A stretch of DNA of 3,713 nt from a virus (Duplodnaviria > Heunggongvirae > Uroviricota > Caudoviricetes), in IMG/VR virus record IMGVR_UViG_2526164632_000034; one strand, given 5' to 3'. Below, in pieces: positions 1 to 3,713 of this stretch. Position 1 is the first letter of the stretch. Each line of letters opens with the position of its first letter. Under the pieces are notes generated by a model. The model saw only the letters and a list, made by a program, of their open reading frames with translations, searched no databases and was not told the origin of the DNA. A program made the position numbers and the translations under genes.

Positions 1-1002
1 TTACCCTCTATTGTCAAAAGGGTTCAATTCAACAGCAGCCTCTAAATGACCTGGAGCAAAATGCGCATAACGCATAGTCATTTTTATATCGCTATGCCCC
101 AGTATTTTTTGCAACACAAGAATATTTCCGCCCCGCATCATAAAATGACTGGCAAACGTGTGACGTAGCACATGAGTTAATTGCCCATCAGGAAGCTCGA
201 TCTTCGCTCTCTTAATTGCAGCGTCAAAAGCCTCATAACATGGTGAAAATAGCGCTCCTCGTTTTTTAGGAAGCATAGCCTGCAATTGAGGTGAAATCGG
301 TACAGTGCGGTTCTTCTTTCCTTTAGTTTTAACAAATGTGATTCGACCGGGCAGTACTTGAGATTGCTTTAATCCTTCTGCTTCACTCCACCGAGCACCA
401 GTCGCAAGCCCAATACGGACAACAACCCCCAAATCTTTATTCCGTGACTCATCACACGCAATCAGAAGGCGTTCAATCTCATCTACATACAGAAACGCCA
501 GTTCCTTTTCTTCCTCACGAAACTTGCGAATACCAGTCAGGGGGTTTTCACCAGACCACTCCCCAAGGCGCTTCAGTTCGGCAAAAACAGCATGTAGATA
601 TGACTGCTCGCGATTAACGGTTGCTTCACTAAGTTTTTTCTTCCCCTTGGGATTCCATTCTCCTGATAGCCTTCTTTCCCGATAAGTAGCAAACATATTT
701 TTGTCAAACTGCGAAGCAAATGGATCTCCCAGCCTGGAACAAATCGCCTCAAGTTTGACTTTGCGCTCTGCACCAGAGGACAAGGTTTTACCGTACATCT
801 CAAACCAACGAGCAATCAACTCAGAAAGACGAGGACCAGAACCATCTTGAAACTCGTCTCCAACTCTACTATTCATTAAACGGCGCTCATAAGAGAGCGC
901 CTCACTTTTTGTCGCAAACTGTTTACGAATGCGTTTTCCCGATGCCCCGTAGGGATAACATTCGCAAAGCCATTTACCTGATGGAATCTTACGAACCGAC
1001 AT
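1..1002 (-). CDS. int: P2-family prophage tyrosine integrase (site-specific recombinase), 333 aa
   Basis: Full-length ORF with stop at 1..3. N-terminus (GKRIRKQF..KSEA) and catalytic-domain blocks (LATGARWSEA, RITFVKTKGKKNRTVPIS, HVLRHTFASHFMMRGGNILVLQKILGHSDIKMTMRYAHFAP) match my recollection of phage P2 Int nearly block for block, including the R..H-x-x-R..Y catalytic residues. The start codon lies 5 nt after the upstream stop with no Shine-Dalgarno. Confidence 0.9.
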   Translation of the reverse strand: MSVRKIPSGKWLCECYPYGASGKRIRKQFATKSEALSYERRLMNSRVGDEFQDGSGPRLSELIARWFEMYGKTLSSGAERKVKLEAICSRLGDPFASQFDKNMFATYRERRLSGEWNPKGKKKLSEATVNREQSYLHAVFAELKRLGEWSGENPLTGIRKFREEEKELAFLYVDEIERLLIACDESRNKDLGVVVRIGLATGARWSEAEGLKQSQVLPGRITFVKTKGKKNRTVPISPQLQAMLPKKRGALFSPCYEAFDAAIKRAKIELPDGQLTHVLRHTFASHFMMRGGNILVLQKILGHSDIKMTMRYAHFAPGHLEAAVELNPFDNRG

Positions 1003-1007
1003 TTTAG

Positions 1008-1355
1008 TTACTTATCACATAAATCAAATGCAGCCTTAGTGACATCCCCCAGACTCTTTTTTAACCCTGGGGCGGCATCATTATCTAGCCAAAATGGATT
1101 ATTGTTATCTAACGGTAACGCACCAAATGTTTTACCTTTTATTCGAGCCAAACCTGTAAGTGCATATAACTTATTATCGTCAAAATTCATTACATAAGGA
1201 TTACCATCAAGACACTGTAATTGAACCTCATCAGTATTAAATGGCCACACCCCATTGAAACTCTCACGTTCAATGGTTTTAAAAGGCATTGCGACGGCGG
1301 AAAAAGAAAACATAGATAAAAAAGTAACTAATAGTTGAACCTTTTTAACTTTCAT
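1008..1355 (-). CDS. Secreted (periplasmic) YebY/DUF2511-like protein, 115 aa
   Basis: N-terminal signal peptide MKVKKVQLLVTFLSMFSFSAVA with an AxA signal peptidase I site and no lipobox cysteine. Two Cys (QLQC and FDLCDK at the extreme C-terminus) suggest a periplasmic disulfide. The blocks WPFNTDEVQLQC, GNPYVMN and C-terminal LC resemble E. coli YebY as I remember it. Good SD (GAGGT, about 6 nt spacer). Hand counts of two 60-nt samples give about 32-38% GC, lower than neighbouring genes. Confidence 0.6.
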   Translation of the reverse strand: MKVKKVQLLVTFLSMFSFSAVAMPFKTIERESFNGVWPFNTDEVQLQCLDGNPYVMNFDDNKLYALTGLARIKGKTFGALPLDNNNPFWLDNDAAPGLKKSLGDVTKAAFDLCDK

Positions 1356-1384
1356 ATCATTACCTCAATTTAGCTCAAGTAAGA

Positions 1385-2035
1385 TTACAAATTAAAAAAC
1401 GCTCTAGAAATGACACCGCCTACCAAACCCCCTACGCAGATAAAGAATATTATTTCTTTTGGATAAAGTCGGATTAATTCTGAAGCACGAAGTCGGACTT
1501 CTGGTAAGGTCGAACTCTCTGTGTGGCTTGATGCCGATTGTTGCTCTAACCACGACAATGCAGACTGTAACTGAGAACGAGTAAGATCGTTTAAACGTCC
1601 TGTACCGAAATTGATATGGCAATACCGCAGAAGTTTTTGTCGAAGTCCACAGTCTTCACTGTTACGTAGTAATAAACTTACAAGAGCCTTACAGGCATCA
1701 TGATCTTTACATCGCTCAAGCATTGCATGCAGAAAACTCTCCGCTGTTTTATATTGATTTACTGTCATATCATCAATACCAGCTACACCAATCTCCGCAT
1801 GTACTTTTTGCCAAATAATAAACGCTTCAGTATTGCTAGCTTCTGCAATAGCAGCAACCAAGCTATTTAGCTCCTTACGCTGAGCCTTAAGCAAAGGGCG
1901 ATCGTCATCATCATTATTCGAAGGGATTGCGATATTGACGGTATGAGAACCATCATATCGCTCTATCTGAATATTCTTTTCGTGAAAATCACGCCCAGCA
2001 ACGCGATTGTTTGAACCGTTTGAGTTGACGGCCAT
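1385..2035 (-). CDS. Tail-anchored membrane protein of unknown function, 216 aa; candidate effector of an accessory/defence module
   Basis: Strong SD (GGGAGGTG) just upstream of the ATG, 15 nt after the upstream stop. About 190 aa of soluble domain (poly-Asp stretch NNDDDD, helical-looking middle) is followed by one hydrophobic segment at the extreme C-terminus (EIIFFICVGGLVGGVISRAFFNL). The N-terminus carries the motif NNRVAGRDF shared with the upstream regulator. I recognise no family. Confidence 0.75.
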   Translation of the reverse strand: MAVNSNGSNNRVAGRDFHEKNIQIERYDGSHTVNIAIPSNNDDDDRPLLKAQRKELNSLVAAIAEASNTEAFIIWQKVHAEIGVAGIDDMTVNQYKTAESFLHAMLERCKDHDACKALVSLLLRNSEDCGLRQKLLRYCHINFGTGRLNDLTRSQLQSALSWLEQQSASSHTESSTLPEVRLRASELIRLYPKEIIFFICVGGLVGGVISRAFFNL

Positions 2036-2050
2036 GTCACCTCCCTACTA

Positions 2051-2455
2051 TCACCTGCCCTTAGTTTCGTTATAGTCACGACCAGCGATACGGTTATTAC
2101 CACCAGAAATATTTAACTCACGTCCTGATGGCTGAGTTTCCTTTTCACTGATCGCACCTTTTAAAGCCCCAATCACCGCGTTTTTCACATCTAACGAAGC
2201 TGCTCGAAAGCGAGTAATCAACTCCTGCTCATCATCGTTATAAGTTTCAGGTGAGTGAATTCCCAACACAACATACTGAACATCAAGGCCAAAACGAGAC
2301 AGCGCTGCCAAATACGCAGCATCAGGAAAGCTATCTCCTTTCTCATATCTAAGCTGAGTTAGCTTTTTGACTCCACCAATGTCGCTCATGGCAACTTGAC
2401 TAAGTCCCAATCTTTCCCTTTCCTCACGCAACCGCTGACCAATATCATTTTTCAT
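2051..2455 (-). CDS. XRE-family (Cro/CI-type) helix-turn-helix transcriptional regulator, 134 aa; candidate prophage repressor or module regulator
   Basis: N-terminal region GQRLREERERLGLSQVAMSDIGGVKKLTQLRYEKGDSFPDAAYLAALSRFGLDVQYVVLG is a textbook HTH_XRE fold pattern. It is transcribed divergently from the rightward small-gene operon, as in P2 C/cox or 186 cI/apl switches. The C-terminal tail carries NNRIAGRDY. No peptidase S24 domain is apparent. Confidence 0.8.
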   Translation of the reverse strand: MKNDIGQRLREERERLGLSQVAMSDIGGVKKLTQLRYEKGDSFPDAAYLAALSRFGLDVQYVVLGIHSPETYNDDEQELITRFRAASLDVKNAVIGALKGAISEKETQPSGRELNISGGNNRIAGRDYNETKGR

Positions 2456-2464
2456 ACAAAAACC

Positions 2465-2493
2465 TTGACAGGTATCTTTTTTGATACCAAAAT
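2465..2493 (+). promoter_or_regulatory. Candidate rightward (early/lytic-type) sigma70 promoter
   Basis: Perfect -35 consensus TTGACA at 2465..2470, with a weaker -10-like CAAAAT about 17 nt downstream (2488..2493). It sits in the 75-bp divergent intergenic region upstream of the 68-aa ORF, which itself has no SD. Confidence 0.35.
2471..2488. promoter_or_regulatory. Candidate operator: perfect inverted repeat GGTATC-TTTTTT-GATACC
   Basis: A 6-bp perfect palindrome with 6-bp T-rich spacer lies in the spacer of the putative rightward promoter. Further GATACC/TATACC half-site-like copies occur at 2522..2527 and 2549..2554. Confidence 0.4.
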
Positions 2494-2530
2494 GATTTCA
2501 CGAGCTATTAGATGATCACAATATACCACT

Positions 2531-2737
2531 ATGAAACAAGTTCTTCACGATACCAGATCACGCATTCCGCGTAACACCGCCACAGGTCCAAGACTGGCAC
2601 TTCGGCTGTCCCTCGAGGAGCGAGCCGTCATTGATGAAATGGCAGCTAAAGAACAACGCTCATCCTCTAACATGGCGCGCATGATCTTCCTTCGCGGCCT
2701 AGAACTAACCCAGAAAGAACAAAACAAATCTTCCTGA
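2531..2737 (+). CDS. Small ribbon-helix-helix-like DNA-binding protein (Arc/Mnt/CopG-like), 68 aa
   Basis: LALRLSLEERAVIDEMAAKEQRSSSNMARMIFLRGLE fits the RHH beta-strand, helix A, helix B pattern (R-L-[ST]-x-E-E ... [ST]-x-[ST]-x-x-x-R). It is the first gene after the divergent promoter. There is no SD and an antisense ORF overlaps, so the call is moderate. Confidence 0.5.
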   Translation: MKQVLHDTRSRIPRNTATGPRLALRLSLEERAVIDEMAAKEQRSSSNMARMIFLRGLELTQKEQNKSS

Positions 2738-2753
2738 TCAAGAGGCTAGTGGG

Positions 2754-2957
2754 ATGTCAGGTATAACCATCAATATCAATGTGAATGCCCCCTATGTATC
2801 CCTGCAGAAATATGCAGAGATAACAGGTATCCCTCTTAATACATGCAAAAAGATGTTGGCTGACGGTCGAATTATTATCCGCCCCAAACGCGCCAAAATG
2901 GAAAAGCCTGAAGTAAACCTTGTGGCGATGTTAAAAGACGCTTTGACTAACAGCTAA
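2754..2957 (+). CDS. Cox/excisionase-like small HTH DNA-binding protein, 67 aa
   Basis: SD AAGAGG about 9 nt upstream. The segment PYVSLQKYAEITGIPLNTCKKMLADGRIIIR has the same arrangement as the P2 Cox N-terminal DNA-binding segment as I recall it (P-Y-x-x-F/Y-A-x-x-x-G-x-x-x-x-x-x-R/K-M-x-x-x-G-x-x-x-I), and it sits where P2-type Cox would. Confidence 0.55.
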   Translation: MSGITININVNAPYVSLQKYAEITGIPLNTCKKMLADGRIIIRPKRAKMEKPEVNLVAMLKDALTNS

Positions 2958-2978
2958 AACAATGAACAGAGCACCATC

Positions 2979-3329
2979 ATGAAAAAAAACGCTAATAATC
3001 CATACTCCAAATTTCGTAATGGCGTAGAACGCCATGTACACCACGTCGCTACCAGTGCATCACGTAGTAACAGTCGCTATAACCTGAACGAGACGCACGC
3101 AACACCGGATGGCCACGCTGTAAAACAAATCGGCGAGCATGCCTGGCTGATTGAGAAAGCTGGAATCGTGGTCCACAAATGCCCACGCAATCCGTTTACC
3201 GGAAACCGCATTTTTGCTCTAAGCAGTGGCGACAATCAGTTCGGGCAGGATTTCACATTATACGAAGCACTTCGCACGGTTGATCGTCTGCTTCGCGGGC
3301 AAAGTTTTATTAAACAGGCTGATTTATAA
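2979..3329 (+). CDS. Hypothetical protein, 116 aa (prophage early-region gene of unknown function)
   Basis: Intact ORF with a weak RBS, same strand and tightly spaced after the Cox-like gene. No family recognised from the translation. Confidence 0.5.
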
Positions 3330-3339
3330 CAGGTGCTTT

Positions 3340-3355
3340 ATGACCAAAGACCATG
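3340..3355 (+). pseudogene. Possible 5-prime stub of a prophage gene truncated by the IS2 insertion
   Basis: AGGTG SD-like sequence at 3332..3336 followed by ATG at 3340 and five codons (MTKDH) that run directly into the IS2 terminal repeat at 3356. The reading frame continues into IS2 and stops after about 21 codons. Confidence 0.25.
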
Positions 3356-3396
3356 TAGACTGGCCCCCTGAATCTCCAGACAACCAGTATCACTTA
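3356..3396. repeat. IS2 terminal inverted repeat (orfA-proximal end), about 41 bp
   Basis: Begins with the characteristic TAGACTGGCCCC...CCAGACA...TATCACTTAA end sequence. The exact inner boundary is approximate without the partner end. Confidence 0.65.
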
Positions 3397-3446
3397 AATA
3401 AGTGATAGTCTTAATACTAGTTTTTAGACTAGTCATTGGAGAACAG

Positions 3447-3713
3447 ATGATTGATGTCTTAGGGCCGGAGAAACGCAGACGGCGTACCACACAGGAAAAG
3501 ATCGCAATTGTTCAGCAGAGCTTTGAACCGGGGATGACGGTCTCTCTCGTTGCCCGGCAACATGGTGTAGCAGCCAGCCAGTTATTTCTCTGGCGTAAGC
3601 AATACCAGGAAGGAAGTCTTACCGCTGTCGCCGCCGGAGAACAGGTTGTTCCTGCCTCTGAACTTGTTGCCGCCATGAAGCAGATTAAAGAACTCCAGCG
3701 CCTGCTCGGCAAG
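3447..3713 (+). CDS. insC: IS2 transposase OrfA (InsC), 3-prime partial (first 89 codons)
   Basis: Translation [86 protein letters not shown] is essentially the E. coli IS2 InsC sequence. The frame is open to the last base of the window. Confidence 0.92.

Follow-up and report, generated by a model that had tools for sequence, protein, structure and literature searches.

The window analysed here, 3,713 nucleotides (nt) from the tailed-phage record IMGVR_UViG_2526164632_000034 (IMG/VR; Caudoviricetes), carries a small gene for a YebY/DUF2511-like protein directly beside the integrase gene (int) of a prophage. The presence of this YebY-like gene is an ordinary finding, and its existence is already annotated: RefSeq labels the product 'DUF2511 domain-containing protein' (WP_000865208.1), and the protein also has a PHROG.

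The YebY-like gene and its product

Four features define the gene and its predicted secreted product:

1008..1355, minus strand: coding sequence of the YebY/DUF2511-like secreted protein, 115 residues, ATG start, stop codon at 1008-1010
1362..1366, minus strand: Shine-Dalgarno sequence GAGGT, 6 nt 5' of the ATG, within the intergenic stretch 1356-1384
1290..1355, minus strand: predicted Sec signal peptide, residues 1-22, MKVKKVQLLVTFLSMFSFSAVA, with cleavage before MPFK (between AVA and MPF)
1011..1289, minus strand: mature domain, 93 residues, 10.4 kDa, isoelectric point 4.7, with Cys48 and Cys113

Membership of DUF2511, proposed in an earlier note made from the letters of the window alone, was confirmed by a hidden Markov model search. 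The protein scores 28.4 bits (E = 2.3e-6) against Pfam PF10709 (DUF2511, now named YebY), whose gathering cut-off is 21 bits, and the match spans profile positions 2-87 of 87. Nearly all of its homologues carry a precomputed PF10709 assignment. The match to phrog_2950 is much stronger than that to PF10709 (E = 8.7e-40), and a search of NCBIfam with the protein gave no match. When solved structures were searched with the single sequence, YebY alone was returned (7N0J, E = 0.0027). A profile built from 15 orthologues matched the same YebY structure in the PDB with E = 1.3e-6 and both cysteines aligned, and matched MlbQ (2MVO) weakly (E = 0.11). An AlphaFold2 (AF2) model was computed from the shallow 15-sequence alignment and reached a predicted local distance difference test score (pLDDT) of 62, which suits fold assignment but not surface analysis. 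Searching with this model in Foldseek returned only YebY 7N0J (E = 9e-4, TM-score 0.75) and MlbQ 2MVO (E = 0.017) at a probability of about 1. As modelled, the protein is predicted to adopt the YebY/MlbQ fold, a four-stranded antiparallel sheet packed by helices.

The signal peptide was called heuristically from charge, hydrophobicity and the A-x-A rule. Its layout bears out the export signal described earlier: the n-region MKVKK (charge +3) is followed by a hydrophobic core of 14 residues and by A-V-A at the predicted cleavage site, and the junction, [AS]-x-A followed by [MVI]PF, is kept in 15 of 15 orthologues. No lipobox was found in the protein, whose sole cysteines are residues 48 and 113; cleavage by signal peptidase I at an A-x-A site is predicted. 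Both cysteines are invariant in the 15 orthologues and align with the Cys48-Cys113 disulfide of YebY, a protein shown to be periplasmic and disulfide-bonded (PMC8689200). The probable disulfide of the earlier note is thus supported, as a predicted bond, by a conserved and aligned cysteine pair.

Across genera, 33 alignment columns are invariant among the 15 orthologues, both cysteines included, and the mature domain contains the invariant core EVQLQCLDG..YVMNFDDN..YALTG. Among E. coli alleles, whose dS is 0.15, the ratio of nonsynonymous to synonymous substitution rates (dN/dS) is 0.05-0.07; for more distant pairs that are not saturated it is 0.08-0.25. As far as substitution patterns can tell, these values show the gene to be under strong purifying selection, a real gene and no chance open reading frame (ORF). 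Of 5426 complete E. coli genomes, 507 (~9%) carry it, among them many O157:H7, enterotoxigenic E. coli (ETEC) and other Shiga toxin-producing E. coli (STEC) strains.

This selection signal bears on the idea that the gene is a functionless passenger, captured and now drifting in a tolerant spot of the prophage. Such a reading would suit a small, AT-rich gene in a hypervariable slot of which disrupted alleles exist. One cluster (P0004) has the signal peptide replaced by sequence derived from an IS2 end, and in the record of Escherichia phage 520873 (NC_049344, 2048-2381) the match is broken into three frameshifted pieces; int is also split in that record, and the pieces may reflect an assembly error. 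On the other side stand the low dN/dS among E. coli alleles, the invariant columns across genera and the intact state of the gene in 505 of the 507 E. coli carriers. Because of the selection signal the passenger reading is disfavoured, and we regard it as extremely unlikely.

The lysogeny operon and its Flk_N protein

A prophage of ETEC H10407, present in other E. coli strains too, matches window bases 1-3355 at 100% identity, and phage 520873 (Peduoviridae, Xuanwuvirus) matches them at 97%; the prophage type is P2-like (Xuanwuvirus). The YebY-like gene is surrounded by the following features:

2051..2455, minus strand: helix-turn-helix (HTH, Xre-type) immunity repressor, first gene of the leftward lysogeny operon, facing the Arc/Cox genes
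1385..2035, minus strand: tail-anchored Flk_N-domain membrane protein, 216 residues, 5' of the YebY-like gene
1..1002, minus strand: tyrosine integrase, which closes the operon and follows the YebY-like gene after a gap of 5 nt
2456..2530, no strand assigned: divergent control region between the repressor and the Arc/Cox early genes

On the minus strand the order is repressor, Flk_N, YebY-like gene and int, with gaps of 15, 29 and 5 nt, and the plus strand carries the divergent Arc-like, Cox-like and DUF4761 genes. This leftward gene string is a P2/186-type lysogeny operon, and the position next to int inside such an operon, as first noticed, is confirmed by the gene order and the short gaps. 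The repressor matches phrog_8 and phrog_4 (transcriptional regulator, repressor) and, below cut-off, Pfam HTH_31/HTH_3 and the RstR/DicA-like models of NCBIfam. For the integrase, matches were obtained to Pfam Int_N (5e-32) and Phage_integrase (2.5e-22) and to phrog_1.

No minus-strand terminator was found anywhere in 1-2455. Promoter-like sites on the minus strand are limited to a 9/12 match inside the YebY-like gene (1108-1080) and one site inside int (164-137), and the total of promoter-like sites lies below the shuffled expectation. The YebY-like gene has no credible promoter or terminator of its own. Within the divergent control region, a rightward promoter-like site, TTGACA-17-CAAAAT, is present at 2465-2493, and a simple scan recognised no leftward promoter there. 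The TTGACA -35 element (2465-2470) lies between the two arms of an imperfect inverted repeat (2444-2462 / 2478-2496), the right arm of which overlaps the -10 element of this early rightward site. This repeat, spanning 2444-2496, is a candidate operator of the repressor/Cox switch.

Two further observations concern the rightward side. The Arc-like ribbon-helix-helix ORF (2531-2737, plus strand) matches phrog_3431 (E = 1e-28) and is annotated in phage 520873; RefSeq ETEC H10407 instead calls an antisense 45-residue 'hypothetical protein' at 2545-2682 (minus strand), which is probably a mis-annotation. Window bases 3356-3713, just after the DUF4761 gene, hold the left end of IS2 with the start of insA (IS2 repressor TnpA, 195 bits). 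The insertion breaks the small gene that follows DUF4761 in intact prophages (H10407 locus 9340-9627).

The Flk_N protein, encoded just upstream of the YebY-like gene, matches the N-terminal part of Flk in NCBIfam (8.6e-16) and phrog_5825 (2e-102) and has a precomputed PF27202 (Flk_N) assignment; Flk is a flagellar regulator, and the domain is related to its N-terminal region. Its AF2 model (pLDDT 72) shows 45 disordered N-terminal residues, a helical domain at 50-172 and a C-terminal transmembrane (TM) helix at 192-214. No significant neighbour of the model was found in the PDB, the best being the SaPI2 Stl repressor with E = 0.57 over ~65 columns.

The earlier note had offered this membrane protein as a possible partner of the secreted one. 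A specific form of this idea is that the YebY-like protein acts as a sensor that reports an envelope signal to Flk_N and so tunes the lysis-lysogeny switch. It is favoured by the finding that every member of the YebY-like subfamily seen in context shares its module with Flk_N, with the order swapped in Erwinia, and by a conserved motif common to the repressor tail and the Flk_N head. However, most Flk_N homologues end exactly at the TM helix and the window copy extends just 7 residues past it, so that there is essentially nothing periplasmic to touch. Further, in a large enterobacterial P2-like lineage Flk_N is the constant neighbour of the immunity repressor and not of the YebY-like gene. It is present in at least 194 clusters compared with 18 for the YebY-like protein, and in prophages that carry it the position next to int can be empty or filled by unrelated genes. 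The co-occurrence of the two is explained by their residence in one prophage lineage. The suggested partnership is therefore not borne out, and the sensor model appears very improbable.

The motif itself is more unusual than the YebY-like gene. The C-terminal tail of the repressor (…GGNNRIAGRDYNETKGR, followed by the stop codon; 2072-2095, minus strand) shares with the N-terminus of Flk_N (MAVNSNGSNNRVAGRDFHEKN…; 1985-2008, minus strand) the pattern [ST]G..NR.AGRD[YF].EN. The repressor-tail form, seen in all repressors of the lineage, reads …SG.GNR[IV]AGRD[YF].E.KK, and the Flk_N-head form, seen in all of its Flk_N proteins, M.[VI][NS]S.G..NR.[AS]G[RQ]D[YF].EN. Besides the window, it was seen in our loci L003, L005, L007, L012, L056-58 and L110-L146. 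Most checked loci contain it exactly twice, with the strict pattern matching one copy in a few, and all divergent modules keep it, despite an identity of only 34-56% between their HTH domains. We considered a DNA repeat or a scar of recombination and rejected both: no DNA-level direct repeat was found, and the motif persists in Erwinia, where the two genes are non-adjacent. Read-through fusion of repressor and Flk_N was rejected as well, given that three in-frame stops (TGA TAG TAG) separate the ORFs. The pattern suggests a shared docking or degradation peptide that links the repressor to the membrane-anchored Flk_N.

The variable slot between Flk_N and int

Orthologues of the YebY-like protein with 59-70% identity are found in Klebsiella, Citrobacter, Serratia, Erwinia, Scandinavium and Rosenbergiella, and the same lysogeny module surrounds them in every readable locus. 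Across genera, module identities amount to 34-56% for HTH, 55-66% for Flk_N, 74-78% for int and 45-70% for Arc and Cox. The compared prophages, more than 60 in number, keep the fixed order HTH, Flk_N, slot, int, and the same Flk_N-int slot is used in Klebsiella, Rosenbergiella and other Enterobacterales prophages. The arrangement in Erwinia differs, with the YebY-like gene lying between HTH and Flk_N.

Slot contents were surveyed by look-ups of abundant Flk_N proteins together with 80 IMG/VR loci. The slot measures 343-1881 nt (L059-L067, L107-L145) and holds at least nine unrelated cargo families, four of which are secreted or membrane proteins, or no ORF:

slot cargo: the YebY-like gene
slot cargo: acidic DUF8087 protein, 85-108 residues
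slot cargo: BRCT/WYL-like protein, 288-295 residues
slot cargo: BRCT protein, 292-313 residues, similar to Orf2 of Vibrio cholerae phage K139
slot cargo: zinc-ribbon and coiled-coil pair
slot cargo: secreted protein, 198-202 residues
slot cargo: two-TM protein, 244 residues
slot cargo: secreted protein, 137 residues
slot cargo: other ORFs

Two phages of the same genus, P88 and PhiR44_2, have int directly beside the repressor and contain neither Flk_N nor cargo. These comparisons of gene content support the view that the YebY-like gene is an accessory gene in a hypervariable slot next to int. Among the slot cargo, PADLOC gave no matches above noise except weak ones to WYL and PDC-S48. The BRCT cargo of 292-313 residues shares 31-34% identity with its homologue K139 Orf2 (E = 1e-45 to 1e-49), from which it follows that the enterobacterial slot corresponds to the cI-int interval of K139-like phages. 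This interval has been described as a defence hotspot (Rousset et al. 2022, PMC9122126), and 8% of P2 defence systems sit between integrase and primase (PMC13586616). We file the YebY-like gene as a new cargo of the known repressor-integrase accessory hotspot of P2-related prophages.

The gene had been described as the most AT-rich of the window, with the suggestion that it was acquired separately as a moron. The first point holds on exact counting: its guanine-plus-cytosine (GC) content of 35.6% (27.6% at third codon positions, GC3) is the lowest among all window genes, the next-lowest gene having 41.3% and the other prophage genes pooled 44.5% (binomial p = 0.001). As evidence, GC content by itself is weaker than was first assumed. 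The value is significantly below those of int, HTH, Arc and DUF4761, but the differences from Flk_N (p = 0.089) and from Cox are not significant, and at GC3 the gene shows no difference from the other leftward operon genes (p = 0.11). The gene ranks lowest or second-lowest of its module in GC in every host, and nearly all slot cargo types are AT-rich relative to int. A high AT content thus characterises the slot in general, and to some degree Flk_N as well, and does not indicate that the gene entered E. coli recently; its accessory status follows from the variability of the slot and not from its GC content. Of the moron proposal, the accessory status is supported, in that the gene is absent or replaced in related phages. 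Since neither a promoter nor a terminator of its own was found, however, it is not a classical (Hendrix-type) moron.

Judging from sequence divergence, acquisition of the gene is ancient and not recent. All genes of the module have diverged across genera, so the YebY-like gene would have long travelled with the lysogeny module. Recent capture of the host yebY was considered and rejected, there being no DNA-level hit to the chromosomal gene. E. coli YebY scores 31 bits on the phage-subfamily profile, below all 150 listed representatives (each at least 38 bits), which likewise argues that the phage gene is no recent copy of yebY.

Two observations made during this comparison extend beyond the window. 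A secreted 198-residue protein accompanies the YebY-like gene in E. coli (L146:4370-4966, plus strand) and in Erwinia (L007:9014-9610, plus strand). The two copies are 52% identical, belong to no Pfam family and lie in differently arranged modules; the protein is absent from the window. As a possible second periplasmic component, it is a better candidate than Flk_N for an occasional partner. Further, distant DUF2511 branches occur in P2-like or integrase-linked contexts, namely beside an Ogr/Delta gene (L147:271-612), directly after an int fragment (L011:613-954) and beside a gene for a WYL-domain protein (L148:352-723). Phage carriage of the fold is thus not limited to one subfamily.

Possible functions of the periplasmic protein

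Repressor-integrase hotspots of temperate phages follow the same logic as the slot described here, with variable cargo that is co-expressed with the repressor and often consists of envelope proteins blocking DNA injection. Ltp of Streptococcus thermophilus phage TP-J34 and Sie2009 of lactococcal P335 phages, for example, are encoded between int and repressor and block DNA injection. The window differs in that its slot lies between the conserved tail-anchored Flk_N and int.

The closest functional analogue is Glo of K139, encoded at the same operon position, a periplasmic protein with a role in phage exclusion according to the passage of PMC4870250 that cites Nesper et al. 1999. The annotation in NC_003313 reads 'periplasmic protein; involved in phage exclusion', and the K139 order is PL, cI, orf2, glo, int, with a lysogenic transcription start annotated. 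Both are small secreted proteins of P2-related (Peduoviridae) prophages, with their genes placed between repressor and int in the lysogenic operon, and the K139 and enterobacterial slots share homologous neighbouring cargo in the Orf2-like BRCT proteins. They differ in that an exclusion phenotype is on record for Glo and not for the YebY-like protein, and no DUF2511 hit was found in Glo.

By analogy with these systems, we tentatively propose, as the leading reading and at somewhat under an even chance, that the YebY-like protein is an envelope-level superinfection exclusion factor. The lysogen would produce the protein along with the repressor and export it, and in the periplasm DsbA would form the Cys48-Cys113 disulfide. 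There it would act as a binder that protects the lysogen at the envelope, most likely by interfering, in the periplasm or at the inner membrane, with the entry of DNA from a superinfecting phage. A binding or blocking mode fits the DUF2511 fold because its characterised members bind in the envelope: YebY has a damping effect on the inner-membrane importer YebZ, and the ligand of MlbQ is a lantibiotic. Receptor masking and a block of DNA entry, the two modes named when the gene was first noticed, are both no more than plausible.

Several points weigh against exclusion. The known functions of the family, copper handling and lantibiotic immunity, are not anti-phage, and the YebY-like protein has no match in PADLOC-DB 2.0 at E up to 0.1. 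Homology to Glo was tried and rejected, as hhalign gave a probability of 8% and aligned the signal peptide alone. To our knowledge there is no likeness to other exclusion proteins either; Glo alone was compared directly. Several of the slot cargo families are cytoplasmic (BRCT/WYL-like, DUF8087), so the slot is not specific to envelope functions. Co-transcription of the YebY-like gene with the repressor, a premise of the proposal, is something we infer from gene layout. Among the papers searched, DUF2511 is linked to phage biology by a context remark alone and none deals with this subfamily, and the 'DUF2511 domain-containing protein' reported in a proteomics study (PMC9927464) is not assignable to the prophage copy.

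The same fold also allows a reading in terms of host physiology, in which the protein binds a small ligand or a host envelope protein and brings about lysogenic conversion. It might damp the YebZ/YobA copper importer as YebY does, or sequester an antimicrobial peptide or bacteriocin as MlbQ does, and the lysogen would show altered copper handling, mar-dependent drug tolerance or altered toxin sensitivity. Family membership and fold argue for this. E. coli YebY, encoded by the third gene of the yobA-yebZ-yebY copper-uptake operon, belongs to the same Pfam family, and the two proteins resemble each other in precursor length (113-115 residues), Sec signal peptide, cysteines at alignment positions 48 and 113 and overall structure (the TM-score given above). 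YebY reduces the copper accumulation that depends on YebZ, and the mar response receives input from the AZY operon (PMC11923076). MlbQ, a self-resistance lipoprotein against the lantibiotic NAI-107 in Microbispora, shares the fold and the disulfide position, is extracytoplasmic and acts by binding (PMC8689200). The frequency of the gene in gut pathogens (O157:H7, ETEC, STEC) would also fit.

The resemblance to both relatives is limited, however. The phage protein is ~30% identical to YebY in structural alignment and represents another branch of the family with its own invariant core; more than 150 representative clusters stand nearer to it than YebY does, in keeping with the low score of YebY on the phage-subfamily profile. 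Its gene belongs to a prophage lysogeny operon and is not located beside copC/copD homologues: at every examined locus, no adjacent copD (yebZ) or copC (yobA) homologue was found, the neighbours being int, Flk_N and the HTH repressor. Copper binding by YebY is weak and confined to the reduced form. MlbQ is an actinomycete lipoprotein with a long linker, whereas the phage protein has no lipobox and its profile matches MlbQ weakly. On balance we consider a role in host physiology unlikely, though it carries appreciable weight; beyond exclusion, host physiology, the sensor and the passenger, we leave the rest of the probability unassigned.

Another proposal makes the YebY-like protein a periplasmic blocker of a host inner-membrane transporter. 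It could be a diverged 'safety valve' on the YebZ/YobA copper importer, or it could block a transporter needed for phage DNA entry. Taking all versions together, we judge such a blocker improbable; a further version, with an envelope signal fed into the repressor/Flk_N pair, is less likely.

In conclusion, DUF2511 has two studied members only, and their proposed roles are unrelated. With its phage-borne branch, which is subject to strong purifying selection, the family provides a simple genetic way into the role of the fold. The Flk_N-int slot is compact and present in a large enterobacterial P2-like lineage, extends the K139-type hotspot and could be mined for new exclusion or defence genes. 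The lysogeny operon should be expressed whenever the prophage is silent, so that important pathogens would constitutively display any envelope phenotype, whether exclusion of phages, a change in copper handling or resistance to peptides. If the YebY-like protein were to block a transporter needed for DNA entry, this would be the first function assigned to a phage-borne DUF2511 protein. If the copper 'safety valve' were true, the prophage would reprogram copper entry and mar-dependent antibiotic tolerance of pathogenic E. coli.

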